Shown piece by piece: positions 9,658 to 23,096 of a DNA stretch of 35,847 nt. The notes under the pieces were generated by a model, which saw only the letters and a list, made by a program, of their open reading frames with translations, made no database searches and was not told where the DNA came from. The stretch is from Patescibacteria group bacterium (GTDB lineage: Bacteria > Patescibacteriota > Minisyncoccia > Minisyncoccales > UBA10102). The stretch covers positions 259,277 through 295,123 of the forward strand of contig JANBVJ010000001.1 of assembly GCA_024239055.1 (NCBI GenBank), written 5' to 3'. The translations under genes were made by a program, and so were the position numbers. Within the stretch, counting starts at the first letter, position 1. Each line of letters begins with the position of its first letter.

Positions 9658-9955
9658 CTTTGTCGACATTTTGCCCTCGTTACCGAGGGGATCGGACTAT
9701 ATCTTCATCCTCTAAAATCTAAGAGGCGTCGGCGTATTAGCTCTACTTAATAAATAGAACTCCGATTCTTACGAATCAAGTCTCTACAGGGTTATAACTT
9801 AATATGCAACAAACTACATACGATTTTTCAATTAAGTTAAACTTCCCACGGTATTGTCCAGATGTATCTGGTAATACATTTCCTGGAGTTCACCGTTATA
9901 AGCCGAATTTTTCTTGATGACATTACTGTCATGGCGCCCCGATGTATATTACATA
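9658..9955 (-). mobile_element. group I intron (298 nt, no ORF) inserted after U2500 (E. coli numbering)
   Basis: Interrupts GGCACCU|CGAUGUCGGC. Exon ends in U and intron ends in G. IGS GGGGCGCC pairs with the 5' exon and ACATCG with the 3' exon. P3 TCGGC/GCCGA; core elements ACGGTGAA, AATACCGTG, GTAGAGACT, GAAGATATAGTCC. Confidence 0.93.
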
Positions 9956-11868
9956 AGGTGCCGAACAGGGCCGTAGATATGGACTCGCGGGCCCTACCAG
10001 CCTGTTATCCCCGGGGTAGCTTTTATCTGATAATCTCCGCGTTTTCTACGAAAACACGTCGGTTCACTAAGTTCTGGTTTCCCAACTGCTCGACATATCC
10101 GTCTCGCAGTAAAGCTAGCTTGTGCCTTTACACTATCTCCACCATTTCCATCGGCGGATAGCTAACCTTTAAACGCCTCCGTTACCTTTTAGGAGGCAAG
10201 CGCCCCACTTAAACTGTCCACCTCCCACTGTCATTCGCTGAGCGAAATTAGTGCTATCTTCGTAAAAGATGGGTGTTTCATTGATGGCTCCACTAAGACC
10301 GAAATCTTAGCTTCAAAGCCTCCCCACTACGCTACGCATCTAAAAAAATAGAACAATGAGAAGCTACAGTAAAGCTCCCGGGGTCTTTCCGTCTAGCCGC
10401 AGGTAACCGGCATCTTCACCGGTATTGCATTTTCACCGAGCACCTCCTCGAGACAGTTCTCCAGTCGTTACGCCTTTCATGCAGGCCTGAACTTACCAGG
10501 CAAGAGATTACGCTACTTTAACACGGTTATAGTTACCGCGGACGTTCACTGGGGCTTCGACCGCTCAGCCTTCAGATAAATCCAAAGACCGGCAGTTTTA
10601 ACACTCCAGCACTGGTCAGGCGTCAGCCCCTATACATACTTTTACAAGTTGAGCAGGGACCTGTGTTTTTGATAAACAGTCGCCAGAGAAACAGTCGCTG
10701 CGGCCCTAATATTAATTAGGGCAGTCCTTATCCCGAAGTTACGGACACTGATTTGCCGAGTTCCTTAAGGAGGTTTCACTCGTTCACCTTAGCATATTTG
10801 CGCTAACCTACCTGTGTTGGTTTGCGGTACGGACTCTTTAAGTTATACGTAATAGAGATTTTCTTGGAAGCGTGCTCGTTCGGATTCCTTCTCCCGTGGG
10901 AAAAGATTTCCACCACACTTGGATTGCTCCTTATGCAGCCGACAGAAATCCAATAATCTGCCCGAAGTACTACACTCCGTCATCTACTACAACACTTAAC
11001 GAGGGGCAGGAATATTAACCTGCTGTCCATCGCTTCAGACCTTTCGGTTCAAAAGCTTAGGCCCGCCTAACCCTTGGATGATCACCATTGCCAAGGAAAC
11101 CTTAGGTTTTCGGTGTGCAGGGCTCTCACCTGCATTGCGGTTACTCATGCCAACATTCTCACTTCTCATCGCTCCACAAGAGGTCACCCTCCAGCTTCAA
11201 CGCAATAAGAACGCTCTCCTACCACTCCTGAGATAAATCTCAGAAATCCTTATCTTCGGTATTTAACTTAAGCCCCGATAAATCTTCGGCGCAAAACCTC
11301 TGAACTAGTAAGCTGTTACGCACTTTTTAAAGGGTAGCTGCTTCTAAGCTAACCTCCTAGCTATCTGAGAAGTTTCACCTCCTTTCTTAGCACTGAGTTA
11401 AAATTTAGGGACCTTAGATGAAGGTCTGGGCTGTTTCCCTTTTGAACATGGAGCTTAGCCCCCACATTCTGACTGACTATGCTAGTCACTCTAGTATTCG
11501 GAGTTTGGTAAGAATACCTAGCTTGCGCCACGAGAATCCTTTCCAGTGCTCTACCCCCAGAGTGTTGTTCATAATCGCTAGCCCTAAAGCTATTTCGGAG
11601 AGAACCAGCTATTACCAAGCTCGATTAGCTTTTCACTTCTTACCACAGCTCATCCCAAGACGTTGAACGGTCTACGGGTTCGGACCTCCCTTTGCCTTTC
11701 GGTAAAGTTCATCCTGGCCATGGCAAGCTCGCTTGGCTTCGGGTCTTCTCCCATCGATTTTAATTCGCCCTATTAAGACTTGGTTTCCCTATGCCTTCGC
11801 GCCGTAAGCGCTTTAGCAACCGATGAGAAAAACTCGTTGGCTCGTTCTGCAAAAAGCACGCCGTCACC

Positions 11869-16476: not shown

Positions 16477-16962
16477 TTATTTCCCTTGAATTCCTATCAG
16501 TTCTACTTCAAAGTACAATGTTGAATTTGGTGGGATCGCTCCAGGTATTCCTCCAGCTCCATATGCAAGTTCAGGTGCAATAGTAAGATTTCTTACGCCT
16601 CCAATCTGCATTCCAGCTACCCCTTCATCCCAACCCTGAATCACTTGTCCTACTCCCAAAGTAAATGTAAATGGCGTATCCTTTGCTCTTGAAGAATCAA
16701 ATGTAGTTCCATTCTCAAACGTACCAACATAGTGTACCGTAACTTGGTCTCCTGCTTCTGCAGTTGCTCCCTCACCTACTTTTATATCTTCAATTTTAAG
16801 TTTTGTTTCTTGTTCCATATTTTCTTGTGGATTTTCTATAACGACTTGCTGATCTTCTTCTGACTGTTGAGAGGAAAAGAATATAAATCCTCCAACAATA
16901 ACAACAGCTACAATAACTAGTATTAAAACCATACTCAATCCCCTCTCTTTAATATGATGCAT
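16477..16962 (-). CDS. membrane-anchored FKBP-type peptidyl-prolyl isomerase
   Basis: VHYVG, FDSS, VIQGWDEG, IPPNSTL.FEVEL. Confidence 0.95.
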   Translation of the reverse strand: MHHIKERGLSMVLILVIVAVVIVGGFIFFSSQQSEEDQQVVIENPQENMEQETKLKIEDIKVGEGATAEAGDQVTVHYVGTFENGTTFDSSRAKDTPFTFTLGVGQVIQGWDEGVAGMQIGGVRNLTIAPELAYGAGGIPGAIPPNSTLYFEVELIGIQGK

Positions 16963-16999: not shown

Positions 17000-17122
17000 A
17001 TTCTACCAAAAAACCGCCTTAAAGGCGATCTTTTGCGAAATGTGGACTACATCGGATTCAATTGGAACCAAATAATTCAGGAATTAGGAACCTGGCAGCA
17101 GCTCAGCTCCAATCTTCTCTAA
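17000..17122. repeat. cassette-junction repeat 1
   Basis: TACCAAAAAACCGCC-n5-GGCGAT..GTGGACTACATCGGATTCAATTGGAACCA; plus-strand frame 17042-17122 reads VDYIGFNWNQIIQELGTWQQLSSNLL*. Confidence 0.9.
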
Positions 17123-17650
17123 AAGTAACGGAAAAGTCTGAAATCCTGACTGTGCCTGAAAATGTTCTCCTCCTTTTACTAAAGTTACGTTAACCCCTAG
17201 ATTCTTTGCAAGTTCTTCCGCTCTCCCTAAGGGGATATAAGGGTCGTTATCGGAATGAATTACGGAAAAATGCTTACAATTTTGTTTTATCTTTTTCCAA
17301 TCAAAATCTCTTTCAGCAAAATCATCAAGATTTGGCTCCCCTTCCGCTTTAAGATGTCCTGAAAATCCTGCAACCAAGAAAGTTGCCCGAGCACTTACCT
17401 CCCACTGATTCAAAACATTTAGTATAAATGGTACTCCAAGACTATGACCCACAATAATGGAATCTGATAGGTGTTCTTTCATTGGACGAAGAGTATCCAA
17501 CCAATTCTGAAGAGTCTGTTTATCTTCTTCAATAGGAAACTGTGGTAAGAAAACCTGCAATTCTTTTTCTTCCAGTTTTTCTTTCAACCACGGATACCAA
17601 TGAGTATCTTTACTTCCAGAAGAACCGTGAATAATAAATGCTGTTCTCAT
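17084..17650 (-). CDS. YdeN/RBBP9-family serine hydrolase
   Basis: IIHG..W.PWLK, GHSLG, SDNDPYI, GEHF. Confidence 0.9.
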   Translation of the reverse strand: MRTAFIIHGSSGSKDTHWYPWLKEKLEEKELQVFLPQFPIEEDKQTLQNWLDTLRPMKEHLSDSIIVGHSLGVPFILNVLNQWEVSARATFLVAGFSGHLKAEGEPNLDDFAERDFDWKKIKQNCKHFSVIHSDNDPYIPLGRAEELAKNLGVNVTLVKGGEHFQAQSGFQTFPLLLEKIGAELLPGS

Positions 17651-17662
17651 ACACTTTATGAT

Positions 17663-18238
17663 TCAGTACTCTTCATTTTCTACTTCTTTTGGAAATAATA
17701 ATTGAAATGGATAACCTACATAGTTCCTGTTTATTTTCCCGCAGCCAATATCTTTAAGAAATGCAACCATTTCTTCTGTAATCTTTTTAGGATCTACATT
17801 TTCATCCTTACCTTTGTACTCAATTTCTACAAAATCTCCAAGTCCTTTTATCGTATCTAATGCAATCTCATAATCTTCATGCATCCATGTTTTCCTTAAT
17901 TTATCAACTATAACGATTGATTTAAAATTAAGAACGTCTAGTATCTTCTTTAATTTACTTAAATCCCCTATCTCCGTCTCATATTCGTCAGCATAGTTGC
18001 TTTTTCCATCTTCTTCATAGTGCCAGTTCTTATAATTTATTGAGTATGTACCGCCTGAATCTCTTAGCCGTATCCACTCTTTTATTGGACGAACCTCAAT
18101 AAAATTACGATGAGCCGGAGAAAAATACTCATCTACTTGATGTTTTTCCGATTGAAAGTCAGCATTCTTTTCCAAAAACTCAATGAGTGGTTTACTGTTC
18201 TCAATCCTAACTTGTATTTCAATTTCAATATCAGACAT
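17663..18238 (-). CDS. CYTH-domain (class IV adenylate cyclase-like) protein
   Basis: EIEIQ, Q.DEYF, IRLR, LGDFVEIE. Confidence 0.9.
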   Translation of the reverse strand: MSDIEIEIQVRIENSKPLIEFLEKNADFQSEKHQVDEYFSPAHRNFIEVRPIKEWIRLRDSGGTYSINYKNWHYEEDGKSNYADEYETEIGDLSKLKKILDVLNFKSIVIVDKLRKTWMHEDYEIALDTIKGLGDFVEIEYKGKDENVDPKKITEEMVAFLKDIGCGKINRNYVGYPFQLLFPKEVENEEY

Positions 18239-18245
18239 ATATCTT

Positions 18246-18373
18246 ACTATACCAAAAAACCGCCCTTATGGCGATATTTTGTTTTTGTGGACTACATCGG
18301 ATTTAGTTGGAACCAGATTATAGAGGAATTGTTGGCTTGGAAGGGTTACGCAGACTTAGAGAACAGGACCTAA
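18246..18373. repeat. cassette-junction repeat 2
   Basis: Same module; frame 18287-18373 reads VDYIGFSWNQIIEELLAWKGYADLENRT*. Confidence 0.9.
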
Positions 18374-18393
18374 ATCTTAAACACATTACTGAC

Positions 18394-19017
18394 TCACAAA
18401 TTATCTAATACTGAGGGTAATTCAGATAACCCATCATCCCCACTAAAATGCCCTTTGCCAGTTTCAATTATAATTTTTGCATTGAGTTCCTTCTCAAATA
18501 ACTCTTTATTCTCTTCAAATGGAACAAGAGGATCGTCTTCCGAAAAGATACAAGTGAAGCTTTCTGCGGCGTTCTTTATTCTTCTAAAATCTATAGAAGT
18601 TTCTATCCAGGGTCTTGCAATAGATTTAGATTCTTCATCTGACATCGCTTCTAAAGTAAGAGTCATCCAAGGAGCAACAAGAACGACACTCCCTACTTTA
18701 CTATACGATAAAGATTTTTCTCTATATTTCTTCCCCACAGCCTCAAAATATGGGAGCTTCTGACTAATGGATTCTAAATATCGTAGCACAGTCTGACAAC
18801 CTACGCTGTGTCCAACAAAATGTGTATTTTCATCTGGGTACTTTATTTCATCTTTAAGTAACCCAACCCAGTCCACAATAGTTGGGTTCTCTGGATGGGG
18901 CATTGTAAAAATAGATACCTCAAAATCTCTACTCTCTAATTCCTGTTTTAGCCAAGGAAACCATCCCTCTTCTGGATAGCCATCCCACCCGTGAACAACA
19001 TAAACTCTTTGCTTCAT
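18394..19017 (-). CDS. YdeN/RBBP9-family serine hydrolase (second homolog); start reassigned to MKQRV
   Basis: VHGW..WFPWLK, GHSVG, SEDDPLV, GHF. Confidence 0.9.
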   Translation of the reverse strand: MKQRVYVVHGWDGYPEEGWFPWLKQELESRDFEVSIFTMPHPENPTIVDWVGLLKDEIKYPDENTHFVGHSVGCQTVLRYLESISQKLPYFEAVGKKYREKSLSYSKVGSVVLVAPWMTLTLEAMSDEESKSIARPWIETSIDFRRIKNAAESFTCIFSEDDPLVPFEENKELFEKELNAKIIIETGKGHFSGDDGLSELPSVLDNL

Positions 19018-19025
19018 ATAATCAC

Positions 19026-19133
19026 ACTGTACCAAAAAATCGCCTGCTTGGCGATTCTCTGGTGTTTGTGACCAAATCGGAATCTGTTGGAACCAATTAG
19101 TAAAATCTCTTAAAGAATACGATGAACTAATGT
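19026..19133. repeat. cassette-junction repeat 3 (1-nt deletion in the core)
   Basis: TACCAAAAAATCGCC-n5-GGCGAT..GTGACCAAATCGGAATCTGTTGGAACCA; frame reads DQIGICWNQLVKSLKEYDEL. Confidence 0.85.
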
Positions 19134-19487
19134 CTATTTCTTCACAATGTTGTTCTCAGAATCCTTATGGTCATATTTCACAAGGATTTCATCCTTTACC
19201 ATATTGAATGCCTCCTCGACATCAACATCAAGTTGATTTGCGAGACGGCAGAGTCCAAAAAACAAATCTCCAATACCATCTACAAAAATATCTTTATTCT
19301 GTTTAACAAATTGAATCCTTTCCTCCTCTGATTTATATCTCAGGTGCTGTGACATTTCTATAAGTTCCTCGTGTAAATGATCGAACTTATCAACATTAGG
19401 AATATCTTTCCATGCGTTACGTTCAGCAAAAAACTGCACAAGAGCCTGTGATTCTTTCATTGTCTCTATTGTTTTCTTTACATCCAT
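19134..19487 (-). CDS. MazG-like all-alpha NTP pyrophosphohydrolase
   Basis: FFAERNAW, HLHEELIE, GIGDL...LANQLDVD. Confidence 0.75.
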   Translation of the reverse strand: MDVKKTIETMKESQALVQFFAERNAWKDIPNVDKFDHLHEELIEMSQHLRYKSEEERIQFVKQNKDIFVDGIGDLFFGLCRLANQLDVDVEEAFNMVKDEILVKYDHKDSENNIVKK

Positions 19488-19509
19488 AAAACTATCTTAC
19501 CAAAAAACT

Positions 19510-19929
19510 TTACTCGCCAAGAAATCTTTTAAAAGCCTGATACTCTTCCATATCACAAAAGTCACTTCTCTTGAGTCGATCATCTACAGATGCCCAAAAG
19601 TAGCTGCTGTGCTCTGGAGAAAGTTTGATACTCCCTGATATGTACTTCCCCTCATATACAATAACAAACACTGGGACTTTACGATTAGCAGATTTACGAT
19701 AGTGAGCAGCAATGGGTTTCCCAATTTTATACTTCACTTTACTCCCCAATTCTTCTTTTACCTCCCGGATCAATATTTTCTCAAGCGGAATATCACCTTC
19801 AATGTTATCAATACGGCCACCCGGTAAATCCAAATGGTCGTCTTTTGTATTTCTCAAAAATAAAAACTTCTTATCTCTTTCCAAAAGTATTTTTAAGGAG
19901 ACCTGGTACTTTTCAAAATCACGGTTCAT
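19510..19929 (-). CDS. NUDIX hydrolase (start 19929 or 19938)
   Basis: LPGGRI..REVKEELG Nudix box; LSPEH. Confidence 0.9.
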   Translation of the reverse strand: MNRDFEKYQVSLKILLERDKKFLFLRNTKDDHLDLPGGRIDNIEGDIPLEKILIREVKEELGSKVKYKIGKPIAAHYRKSANRKVPVFVIVYEGKYISGSIKLSPEHSSYFWASVDDRLKRSDFCDMEEYQAFKRFLGE

Positions 19930-19936
19930 CTTTATC

Positions 19937-20061
19937 ATTCTACCAAAAAACCGCCATTATGGCGATATTTTGTTTTTGTGGACCAAATCGGATTCAGTTG
20001 GAACCAGATTATTGCAGAGCTACAACTCTTCCAAGATCTTGGTTCTTTCACTTATACATAA
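19937..20061. repeat. cassette-junction repeat 4
   Basis: Same module; frame 19978-20061 reads VDQIGFSWNQIIAELQLFQDLGSFTYT*. Confidence 0.9.
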
Positions 20062-20117
20062 ATTACCTTATCAAAAAAGCAAAGGAATCTTTCTTTTCGC
20101 ATTGGAGTGATAGAATT

Positions 20118-20429
20118 TTAAAAAGAGTCAATCATACTTACTCCAAAAGAAACAGGAACAATATTCCTTGGTGGATCAGGAATACTTGGATTTTCTGGAG
20201 CTGTTTTTGGTGTTCGAGAAACTGGAGAAAGAGCAAATCTATCCCTTATTATAAATTTATTCATATCTTTATCATTAGCTATAACTCCTCGAAAATTTCC
20301 TTCGGAATCCCAAACTGTATTACCGTCAACCCAACCTAAATAAACGCCATCTCTTGAAAACACAAAACCACCCTCGATAAACCCCAAGTAATTTCCGTTT
20401 GTTTTGAATATAAATATTATATTACCCAT
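20118..20429 (-). CDS. small beta-repeat protein (4-fold beta-flower-like)
   Basis: Repeated F/W-x-x-x-G-x-Y/F-L-G-F/W units with a Pro-rich tail; overlaps the protease gene. Confidence 0.65.
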   Translation of the reverse strand: MGNIIFIFKTNGNYLGFIEGGFVFSRDGVYLGWVDGNTVWDSEGNFRGVIANDKDMNKFIIRDRFALSPVSRTPKTAPENPSIPDPPRNIVPVSFGVSMIDSF

Positions 20430-21105
20430 TCTTTTCTTCTTCTAAAGTTTTATGCTCAGGAATATAAGAAGCTGGTACTGCATATCCAACGCCAAGTTGC
20501 AGATTTCTTATCAGCGCGGTGTAAATTTCGACAACATCTACTCCGTGTAGGGATAATGCACCAAACTCCATATCTTCTACCTTTTTTAAAATTTTACCCC
20601 TCTCTCTTCCTGTCGCATTAACAACACCTATTACCTCGCCATCTGAATTCATTAAAGGACATCCACTGTTTCCAAGATTAACCGTGCCATCGATAAGATA
20701 TGTAACTACTCCTACTGCATCTTTAGTTATAGCAGAGAGTATGCCTTGATGAGTTATAGGAATTTTAGAATTTAGTGGATACCCAGAAAATACCACTGGC
20801 ATTCCTTCTTTAACTACCGAAACATCCGCAAGTATAAGTGGTTCTATTGTATCATCTTCAAATTTTAAAAGGGCAAGATCGTGCTCATCATCTCGAACTA
20901 CTACTTTTGCATTAATATATTCCCCTTCTGGAAACTTAATGAGAAGAGACTCAGCTCCTCTAACTACGTGATTACAAGTAACTAAAACTCCTTTTTTAGA
21001 AAATACAAAACCTGTACCAGTTCCAGAACTTTTTCCTTTTTTGTTTATAGTAACAACGAGTGCAATACTTGACCTTGTCTTATTTACGGCATTGGAGCAA
21101 TCCAT
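20422..21105 (-). CDS. trypsin-like serine protease (no signal peptide or PDZ domain)
   Basis: TCNHV, DLALL and GNSG catalytic triad. Confidence 0.92.
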   Translation of the reverse strand: MDCSNAVNKTRSSIALVVTINKKGKSSGTGTGFVFSKKGVLVTCNHVVRGAESLLIKFPEGEYINAKVVVRDDEHDLALLKFEDDTIEPLILADVSVVKEGMPVVFSGYPLNSKIPITHQGILSAITKDAVGVVTYLIDGTVNLGNSGCPLMNSDGEVIGVVNATGRERGKILKKVEDMEFGALSLHGVDVVEIYTALIRNLQLGVGYAVPASYIPEHKTLEEEKNG

Positions 21106-21166
21106 ATTTTATACTAACTCATAGTATAATATTATTCAACAATTTCCTCTGTCTATTATAAAAGAG

Positions 21167-21200
21167 ATCATACCAAAAAACCGCCCTAATGGCGATCTTT
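21167..21200 (-). terminator. terminator/promoter module after tRNA-Ala (fifth copy of the repeat arm)
   Basis: Minus strand ATCGCC-ATTAG-GGCGGTTTTTTGGTATGAT. Confidence 0.85.
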
Positions 21201-21208
21201 TGTATTTG

Positions 21209-21282
21209 TGGACCTGATCGGATTCGAACCGATGACCCCTTCATTGCAAATGAAGTGCTCTAGCCAGCTGAGCTACAGGCCC
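21209..21282 (-). tRNA. tRNA-Ala(TGC), CCA not encoded
   Basis: Cloverleaf with G3:U70; anticodon arm CTTCA-TTTGCAA-TGAAG. Confidence 0.97.
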
Positions 21283-21340: not shown

Positions 21341-21417
21341 TGGTGGGCGTGGAAGGACTCGAACCTTCGACCTCATTCTTATCAGGAATGCGCTCTAACC
21401 AGCTGAGCTACACGCCC
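21341..21417 (-). tRNA. tRNA-Ile(GAT)
   Basis: GGGCGTG acceptor stem, CTGATAA loop, encoded CCA. Confidence 0.97.

Positions 21418-21606: not shown

Positions 21607-23096
<1,490 letters not shown>

Follow-up and report, generated by a model that had tools for sequence, protein, structure and literature searches.

An array of small integrase-less gene cassettes with conserved tRNA-tail/small-ORF junctions behind the tRNA-Ala gene of a Patescibacteria group bacterium

Genomes of the Patescibacteria are about 0.5-1 Mb in size and contain very few recognisable mobile elements, and the gain and loss of their accessory genes are poorly understood. In integrons, gene cassettes carry attC sites, which are imperfect folding palindromes, and are mostly promoterless, being expressed from the Pc promoter. 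IMEX/dif-module elements are non-autonomous, lack a recombinase of their own, and are moved by the chromosome-dimer resolvase of the host. Here, we analyzed a stretch of 35,847 nucleotides (the window) from a Patescibacteria group bacterium (assembly GCA_024239055.1; 1.08 Mb, 97% complete), corresponding to positions 259277-295123 of contig JANBVJ010000001.1 (C1); coordinates are those of the window unless another contig or locus is named. The first 4.2 kb behind its tRNA-Ala(TGC) gene, up to an FKBP gene, consist of an array of four gene cassettes bounded by five copies of a module, and in four of these copies an antisense tRNA 3' end forms the head of a small open reading frame (sORF). We read the array as a flexible islet whose minimal cassettes lack an integrase, and we propose, with the scales about level, that they would be exchanged site-specifically by a recombinase acting in trans. 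Anatomy, junction conservation and coding signature, and a content that differs among relatives are observed; we infer the recombination, the enzyme, and the expression of the peptide. The locus is a recurrent hotspot behind a 16S-linked tRNA-Ala, where units of 1-2 genes are swapped between fixed boundaries without a recombinase gene.

The closest described systems are genomic islands at tRNA genes. The crossover of tyrosine integrases falls in the anticodon loop, in the T loop, or at the T/acceptor junction; attP carries a fragment of the tRNA gene, and some ORFs run across attP (PMC4383910). When elements integrate serially, the older ones are moved outward and partial tRNAs are left behind (bioRxiv 10.1101/2020.12.28.424599). 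As in Islander-type islands, the array shows an intact tRNA followed by downstream 3' fragments in the same orientation, tandem units, and a fragment boundary or inferred crossover in the T-loop or T-acceptor junction class (PMC4383910); by the Islander definition, however, each such island contains an integrase and spans 2-200 kb, whereas the units of the array have no integrase and measure 0.78-1.25 kb. Two further differences are that the fragment in the array is fused to a conserved sORF and that the fragments mismatch the resident tRNA in many genomes. Because island finders demand an integrase and at least 2 kb, units of this kind would be discarded, and similar islets may thus be widely overlooked; the conserved junction offers a simple sequence handle to find them.

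With tycheposons and the islands of Prochlorococcus, the array has in common a streamlined host, a position adjacent to a tRNA, an outward push, scattered partial tRNAs, and plug-in cargo cassettes. Tycheposons are elements of several kb with their own tyrosine recombinase and often replication genes, although smaller forms lacking an integrase may exist, whereas neither gene type occurs in the array; moreover, the array junction carries a conserved peptide-coding block. A reading frame overlapping a tRNA-derived att core is also found in the attP-crossing ORFs of SSV-type virus and Mx8 integrases, as mentioned in PMC4383910, but these are integrases of several hundred residues, whereas the junction ORF is 24-34 aa long and no longer form was found. 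Compared to integrons, the array likewise contains co-oriented cassettes of 1-2 genes, a repeated recombination-type site, variable content, and a recombinase outside the cassette; it differs in having no adjacent intI, a tRNA anchor, and TG-extended -10 boxes (sequence matches) before the cassette genes. No attC-like folded site was found in the array, the terminator hairpin being the only recurrent inverted repeat. As with Xer-borrowing elements, the sole candidate enzyme is Xer-like, but the target of the array is a tRNA end, and inspection by eye showed no dif-like site (two inverted arms around a 6-8 bp centre) in the junction; only elimination ties the array to Xer. Overall, its mode of operation resembles that of tandem tRNA islands and, more loosely, that of an integron, yet it qualifies as neither. 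Screening the literature (titles and the beginnings of abstracts) for such arrays in this bacterial group returned nothing relevant.

The pattern TACCAAAAAAYCGCC-N5-GGCGAT has exactly five matches in the window, at 17004, 18250, 19030, 19941, and 21171, and none in any of 100 shuffled controls. Copies 1-4 run on through GTGGAC-nnn-ATCGGATT into yArTTGGAACCArAT (-yAr-TTGGAACCA), and copy 5 continues into the real 3' end of tRNA-Ala (21208-21282, minus strand). A preliminary description of this DNA, made from its letters, had placed five copies of a ~70-bp module at these sites, the last being the true tRNA-Ala end, with spacings of 1245, ~781, ~910, and 1230 bp. The exact pattern search reproduced the positions, and we measured spacings of 1246, 780, 911, and 1230 bp; the repeat is real, but the whole module is longer (~120 nt) and a composite of two halves, and copy 3 has degenerated, being 62-65% identical and lacking one base of GTGGAC. 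Overall, the copies are 62-88% alike, i.e. 12-38% diverged.

The right half, which a genome-wide search located in the array only, consists of the antisense of a tRNA-Ala 3' end (18 nt, from T-loop position 57 to the 3' end) followed by a conserved block of ~50 nt, which begins exactly at the T-loop boundary. Four bases of the T loop make up the 18-nt head together with the 3' strands of the T stem and of the acceptor stem (with U70), the discriminator, and one further base. On the plus strand, the junction contains an ORF of 26-28 aa (FSWNQIIxEL..W) that starts at the GTG of GTGGAC, its first six codons being tRNA antisense. The preliminary description had called this segment a tRNA-end mimic, which is right insofar as it is the antisense of a tRNA 3' end, but had missed that it is the head of a conserved sORF on the opposite strand. 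Copy 1 (26 aa, VDYIGFNWNQIIQELGTWQQL..., 17042..17122, profile E 1.3e-12) overlaps with its 3' end the 3' end of a hydrolase gene; copies 2 (28 aa, VDYIGFSWNQIIEELLAWKG..., 18287..18373 with the head at 18287-18304, E 3.8e-12) and 4 (27 aa, VDQIGFSWNQIIAELQLF..., 19978..20061 with the head at 19978-19995, E 3.6e-12) are equally on the plus strand. The decayed copy 3 (19068..19100, plus strand, 62-65% identity) is frameshifted by the deletion in GTGGAC and was missed by the peptide scan. The four fragments match the tRNA-Ala 3' end at 15, 15, 16, and ~14 of the 18 positions, and their acceptor triplets are TAC, TAC, CAA, and CAA versus CTG in the resident tRNA-Ala, the very difference (TAC/CAA vs CTG) that had been pointed out earlier.

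In 25 distinct junctions, the seven codons that were unused in selecting them contained 0 stops in the plus frame versus 5-15 in the other frames. The pN/pS ratio was 0.38 in the block and 1.05 in the tRNA-derived head, the figure for the block being inflated by the choice of sequences. Selection likely acts on the sORF block at the peptide level, to judge from these patterns, and the peptide would then be expressed; the coding signature could also be inherited from an unseen master copy. Two other identities were considered for the junction and rejected. As a structured RNA, 25 junctions gave 4 pairs, 0 compensatory changes, and -0.14 kcal/mol with RNAalifold, and Rfam matched only tRNA/rRNA. 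As the start of a longer protein, e.g. a split integrase, the block gave three candidates in a word search for longer forms, none with E ≤ 1. Searching the profile against 1.84 billion representative proteins retrieved 28 clusters. All are short ORFs, 30-173 aa long, in which the motif sits at or close to the ORF end or accounts for the whole ORF, small and unusual genes being under-called in such collections.

The junctions form a conserved family of tRNA-tail/sORF fusions, and their sORFs, with initial codons that are tRNA-end antisense, define a new small-ORF family. A strict 20-nt DNA pattern was present in 17 of 401 genomes of the order, including the genome under study, compared to 4 for the reversed control; reading the contexts revealed the full motif in ~14 of the 16 other genomes, interrupted by stops in two. 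With the peptide profile, 2 of 35 other genomes of the family were positive, one with two copies 5 kb apart, and another genome (L037) holds two junction copies 730 bp apart. All heads are built as 4+5+7+1 nt (+ CCA where encoded) with a fixed T-loop boundary. There are at least four head types: an Ala-like one, two others in the family, and a CCA-ending one in metagenome-assembled genomes (MAGs) labelled as other phyla. In Actinomycetota- and Omnitrophota-labelled MAGs, the block is joined at the T-loop position to other tails that end in antisense ACCA. The heads match the resident tRNA-Ala at 15-16 of 18 nt in the genome under study and in a related metagenome contig (L092); because they mismatch the resident tRNA in many genomes, the head appears to move together with the block and not to be excised from every host anew. 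In six lineages (the genome under study and the loci L092, L017, L026/L078, L028, and L030/L063), tRNA-Ala(TGC) is followed by the sORF at a distance of 0.5-1.2 kb, in convergent orientation, and a tRNA-Glu lies 1.8-2.7 kb from it in L046 and L052. The genes beside the junction in 10 relatives encode CYTH, Fic, a TylF methyltransferase, HTH, DUF4238, and a PEP-utilizer domain, four having no assignment. Among the viral contigs of IMG/VR, six stretches matched the pattern and none had the rest of the motif.

The left half consists of a hairpin, a T-run, and a TG-extended -10 box followed by an ATG (loose consensus rTCGCC-N5-GGCGrTTTTTTGrTAnnnT, then ATG after 7-8 nt). The hairpin with its T-run scored as a terminator (in two of the copies for either strand), and the hairpin arm TCGCCA scored as a -35 box located 17 nt from the -10 box. 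Allowing up to 2 mismatches, a genome-wide search for the pattern returned 12 matches, 7 of them outside the array (reversed control 0), and a looser version has 17 sites, e.g. at C1 508204, 240729, and 304854; an ATG follows most copies within ~10 nt. One copy lies behind tRNA-His with an identical 12-nt trailer, and the motif is also found behind tRNA-Ala in another genus of the family (L116). We read the left half as the standard terminator/promoter of this lineage, a general regulatory motif and no dedicated part of a site, contrary to what had been supposed. In this respect it resembles dispersed REP/MITE-type repeats, whereas the tRNA-head/sORF half is restricted to the array, so that a genome-wide dispersal of the module, which would have spoken against a link to the tRNA, applies to one half only. 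The distance of 7-8 nt between the -10 box and the start codon suggests that the mRNAs would be leaderless.

All five module copies are read on the minus strand. Copy 5 (21171..21207) is made up of the tRNA-Ala trailer, a hairpin ATCGCC-N5-GGCGGT, a T-run, and the TG-extended -10 box TGGTATGAT, with a promoter-like site at 21195-21167 in which TG precedes the -10 box. Copy 4 (19941..19977) contains the terminator hairpin, T-run, -10 box TGGTAGAAT, and trailer, being terminator-like on both strands and promoter-like with TG. Copy 3 (19030..19067, pattern match) has the -10 box TGGTACAGT, and copy 2 (18250..18286, pattern match and promoter/terminator scan) has the -10 box TGGTATAGT, followed after 7 nt by the ATG of the CYTH gene. 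Copy 1 (17004..17041, supported in the same two ways) is the terminator/promoter in front of the flanking FKBP gene. A TGnTAnnnT box followed by an ATG at 7-8 nt, which the preliminary description had given as the usual arrangement of the junctions, applies to copies 2, 3, and 4; the ATG is ~40 and ~60 nt away in copies 1 and 5, respectively. A second repeat, TATATGAAGCyGGACTCAAAGTCG, often doubled, occurs behind small hydrolase genes, immediately before terminators of this kind (C1:237521-238760, 398979-399495, 114859, and 116005).

Cassette content varies among relatives. Within the rRNA-tRNA segment, L092 is 91% identical to the genome under study, and it retains the FKBP flank (75% at the amino acid level), but CYTH is the sole cassette gene in common (92% amino acid identity, tblastn). 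Starting from tRNA-Ala, its order is Ser_hydrolase and HAD, one junction with an sORF, genes resembling ATP-grasp and methyltransferase (named by eye), a terminator without sORF, CYTH, a terminator, a high-GC gene, and FKBP; thus, its single retained junction has different genes on both sides compared to the array studied here. The high-GC gene (L092 1214-1879, 221 aa) stands in an otherwise low-GC islet and is evidently a foreign acquisition. In two genomes labelled as one genus (G298 and G310), tRNA-Ala is 100% identical and the junction head 94%, with nothing alignable between the two. The distance from tRNA-Ala to the NiSOD gene is 60 nt in G014, ~480 nt in G011, ~1.35 kb with three small ORFs in G032, and ~5.3 kb in the genome under study; the arrangement in G014, with tRNA-Ala directly beside NiSOD, is like an empty site. 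The neighbours kept at the tRNA-Ala loci of the family are NiSOD, its S26-type peptidase, and an MscS-like gene. In G021 (L124 382-500), two tandem partial tRNA-Ala 3' halves, starting from the anticodon loop, lie directly behind the intact tRNA-Ala, indicating that tRNA-Ala is an integration target in the family; an HAD hydrolase gene like that of L092 follows these halves. In G116, which belongs to another family, two CYTH genes (L078 5700-6266 and 6836-7378) flank a decayed sORF junction behind tRNA-Ala, and one of them is nevertheless 67% identical to the CYTH of the window.

Sequencing runs were compared as assembled contigs, and stretches without cover in runs X2 and X4 carry no weight. 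Run X2, from another study and with a depth of 3-4, contains contigs 90-95% like cassette C and the start of CYTH, joined in another order; the joint 17035>19126 is weak, its 29-nt side lying inside the dispersed terminator motif.

Between the array and L092, homology upstream of CYTH stops at the trailer/GTGGAC boundary, and L017 has, before its sORF, a second copy of 40 nt of the tRNA-Ala trailer plus GTGGACC, beyond which the sequences diverge. From these breakpoints and from the differences in the acceptor triplets, we infer an exchange at or to the left of the triplet next to the T stem. Of the recombination model advanced at the outset, several elements fared well: a crossover in or next to GTGGAC fits the L092 and L017 breakpoints and the T/acceptor-stem junction subsite (PMC4383910), and a variable cassette platform at tRNA-Ala without a recombinase in cis agrees with the comparisons of L092, G298/G310, and G014. 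The gene order is not fixed among relatives, content varying in L092, in G298/G310, and at the loci of the family. A single core for all breakpoints did not hold up, one of them lying in the GTTTTTTGGTA promoter motif. The contrast drawn with integrons was fair, but a wholly new platform was too strong a claim because tandem tRNA-anchored islands with partial tRNAs are known.

We searched the genome for enzymes that could act on the array. The absence of an integrase from the window was confirmed, the only PF00589 match of the genome being at C1:235606-236136, outside the window and 41 kb from the array. This gene, the one co-occurring recombinase for which the preliminary description had advised to look, encodes an Xer-like tyrosine recombinase (C1:235237-236190), with 226 bits for XerC and 104 bits for the integron-integrase model TIGR02249 (cut-off 265). 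PF00239, PF07508, PF00665, PF01797, and PF01548 gave 0 matches each in the genome, DDE_Tnp_1 and TnpB not being searched. Two matches to PF00078 (RVT_1), at C31:933-1535 and C1:540318-540923, are not near the array; the latter reverse transcriptase gene adjoins a tRNA-Ser cluster. One or two tyrosine recombinases were found in 4 of 5 other junction genomes.

Read along the tRNA strand, a cassette consists of the compact terminator/promoter, 1-2 genes (most of them starting 7-8 nt after the -10 box), and the junction. In the proposed mechanism, cassettes would enter and leave by site-specific recombination, in which the trailer/acceptor-end part of the genuine tRNA-Ala would pair up with its counterpart in a junction, comparable to phage or island att sites at the T-stem/acceptor junction. 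The enzyme would act in trans, as the single Xer-like tyrosine recombinase or, equally possibly, as a product of a helper element outside the genome. Newer cassettes would push older ones outward, and the repeated terminator/promoter motifs may permit further shuffling by homologous or short-homology recombination. If the host Xer protein or a helper does move the cassettes, this would constitute a compact new route of gene capture. A bolder version, which we regard as rather unlikely, is an integron-like capture system of the order and perhaps of other phyla, in which self-promoted cassettes would dock at tRNA 3' ends via the ~120-nt composite site with an enzyme in trans, possibly of the Xer type, and the 26-aa peptide would be functional, e.g. 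as a targeting or directionality factor.

Several observations weigh against site-specific exchange by a trans-acting recombinase. No integrase was found in or near any junction examined, and in the one genome with recombinases placeable on the junction contig they are 39 kb and 105 kb away. By eye, a palindromic core typical of Xer is not evident around the head. The breakpoints are heterogeneous: in X2 the start of CYTH is joined behind NUDIX via an 11-nt shared TACCAAAAAAC, and one cassette boundary of L092 is a terminator only. The heads mismatch the resident tRNA in most genomes (e.g. 14 of 18 nt match in G104 and 11 of 18 in G264, 10 positions being fixed anyway), no resident tRNA with at most 1 mismatch to the head was found in G020, and the acceptor triplets of the array heads could not pair in the host tRNA. 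L046 and L052 have a tRNA-Glu nearby and a head of a different type; in the MAGs with other labels, which may be incomplete, no resident source tRNA for the heads was found. The sORF has no conserved promoter or ribosome-binding site before it and is preceded by a terminator-like hairpin on the plus strand. The cassettes have a GC content of 0.33-0.39, the same as the flanks, and hence no foreign signal. Finally, in the source run a single contig spans the entire array; at the level of assembled contigs, neither an alternative joint nor a recombination event was seen.

The main rival explanation needs no dedicated system: the highly conserved 16S-tRNA-Ile-tRNA-Ala segment would provide a homology anchor for incoming DNA and the other end would find short homologies in the junction copies and the repeated terminator/promoter motifs, cassettes being swapped by homologous or homology-facilitated illegitimate recombination, with the sORF as a small gene or scar duplicated along. 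The terminator/promoter motif is suited to this role, given its 17 copies in the genome and its presence behind tRNA-Ala in another genus, and the X2 joint does lie within the 11-nt motif. Boundaries without an sORF in L092, the lack of a recombinase in cis and of matches to five other recombinase/transposase families, and the uniform GC content point the same way. Such swaps leave unexplained, however, why tRNA and block are fused at one T-loop position across tRNA types and lineages, why breakpoints in L092 and L017 fall at the tRNA 3' end, and how the tandem tRNA halves of G021 arose; in addition, module copies that are only 62-88% alike are a poor substrate for RecA. We consider this explanation doubtful, albeit worth keeping in view.

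Two further alternatives fit less well than shuffling by homology. The array could be a graveyard of four full-size integrase elements of the tycheposon/P4 type, serially integrated at tRNA-Ala and then stripped by deletion of their integrase and most other genes, with partial tRNAs and some cargo genes left over; for Prochlorococcus islands, the tycheposon article describes a decay of serially integrated elements. The partial tRNA repeats downstream of the intact tRNA-Ala have the right orientation for this, the bare tandem halves of G021 have nothing between them, and junction copy 3 has decayed. But no integrase fragment is left beyond the one PF00589 match 41 kb away, the cassettes are uniform (0.78-1.25 kb) and tidy, a promoter and intact ORFs being present in every one, and an identical truncation would be needed in every cassette and in ~14 other genomes. 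The block was never found in a protein of more than 173 aa among the 1.84 billion representatives, nor in the search for longer forms, and the six IMG/VR stretches include no real match; we therefore judge a graveyard improbable. Still more improbable is an old tandem duplication of one tRNA-trailer/sORF unit that later diverged, with nothing mobile now. The divergence of 12-38% between module copies and the single arrangement in the source sample would be expected under such a static duplication, but gene content varies among relatives while boundaries persist, the genes of the four cassettes come from different families, and the X2 pieces, 90-95% similar, occur in another order.

The four intervals hold 2, 1, 2, and 2 genes (seven in total), all on the minus strand and co-oriented with tRNA-Ala, as initially described, but they are not all unrelated, the two Ser_hydrolase genes being paralogues with 22% identity. 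Cassette D, next to the tRNA, encodes a trypsin-like serine protease of 227 aa (20422..21105; Pfam Trypsin_2, E 1.5e-26, also matching protease domains of PADLOC models) and a 4-fold beta-flower protein of 103 aa (20118..20429; Pfam Bflower, E 2.8e-10). Cassette C encodes a NUDIX hydrolase of 142 aa (19510..19938; Pfam NUDIX, E 9.6e-07), whose start is likely the second ATG, 7 nt after the -10 box, and a 117-aa protein (19134..19487) with weak MazG-like matches (NCBIfam mazG, E 2.3e-4, far below the cut-off) and no Pfam match above threshold; the latter gene has its own TTTTTTGGTA box without a hairpin. Cassette B consists of a YdeN-like Ser_hydrolase gene (18394..19017, 207 aa from the ATG at 19017; Pfam PF06821, E 1.4e-19). 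In cassette A, a CYTH/class IV adenylate cyclase-like protein of 191 aa (17663..18238; Pfam CYTH, E 2.3e-20; NCBIfam cyaB, 87 bits, above cut-off) is followed by the other Ser_hydrolase, of 188 aa (17084..17650; PF06821, E 6.2e-29). No recombinase, primase, helicase, or polymerase domain was found in the seven proteins with Pfam and NCBIfam. A role as defence genes was considered with the PADLOC models and dismissed: NUDIX hits a candidate model and the protease hits protease domains from several systems, none of them present in complete form. On the distal side, the flanking gene encodes an FKBP-type isomerase (16477..16962, minus strand; Pfam FKBP_C, E 3.3e-36).

The anchor of the array, the intact tRNA-Ala(TGC) (21208..21282, minus strand; ARAGORN; Rfam tRNA, 70.3 bits), has a G3:U70 pair and no encoded CCA. 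On the same strand, it is preceded by the 16S rRNA gene (21607-23096) and, just downstream of the latter, tRNA-Ile(GAT) (21341..21417). Protein genes fill ~8.5 kb between tRNA-Ala and the 23S rRNA gene (12687-9276), which is followed by 5S, also on the minus strand; at none of 11 tRNA-Ala loci of the family (L112-L129) does a 23S gene occur within 1.5 kb of this tRNA. A search with the 22-nt tails of all 43 C1 tRNAs, at up to 3 mismatches, gave matches inside other tRNAs only, so that no displaced 3' ends were found; since the 18-nt Ala fragments were also missed, this excludes only longer fragments. The 23S rRNA gene contains a group I intron at 9673-9976 (Rfam, 70.8 bits). Elsewhere in the assembly, a 53.6-kb contig carries 27 tRNA genes and a tmRNA gene within 9.4 kb (C4:237-9410) and may derive from a phage or from another organism binned with the genome, and ARAGORN predicts a tRNA with a four-base anticodon (tgag) at C1:217296-217372.

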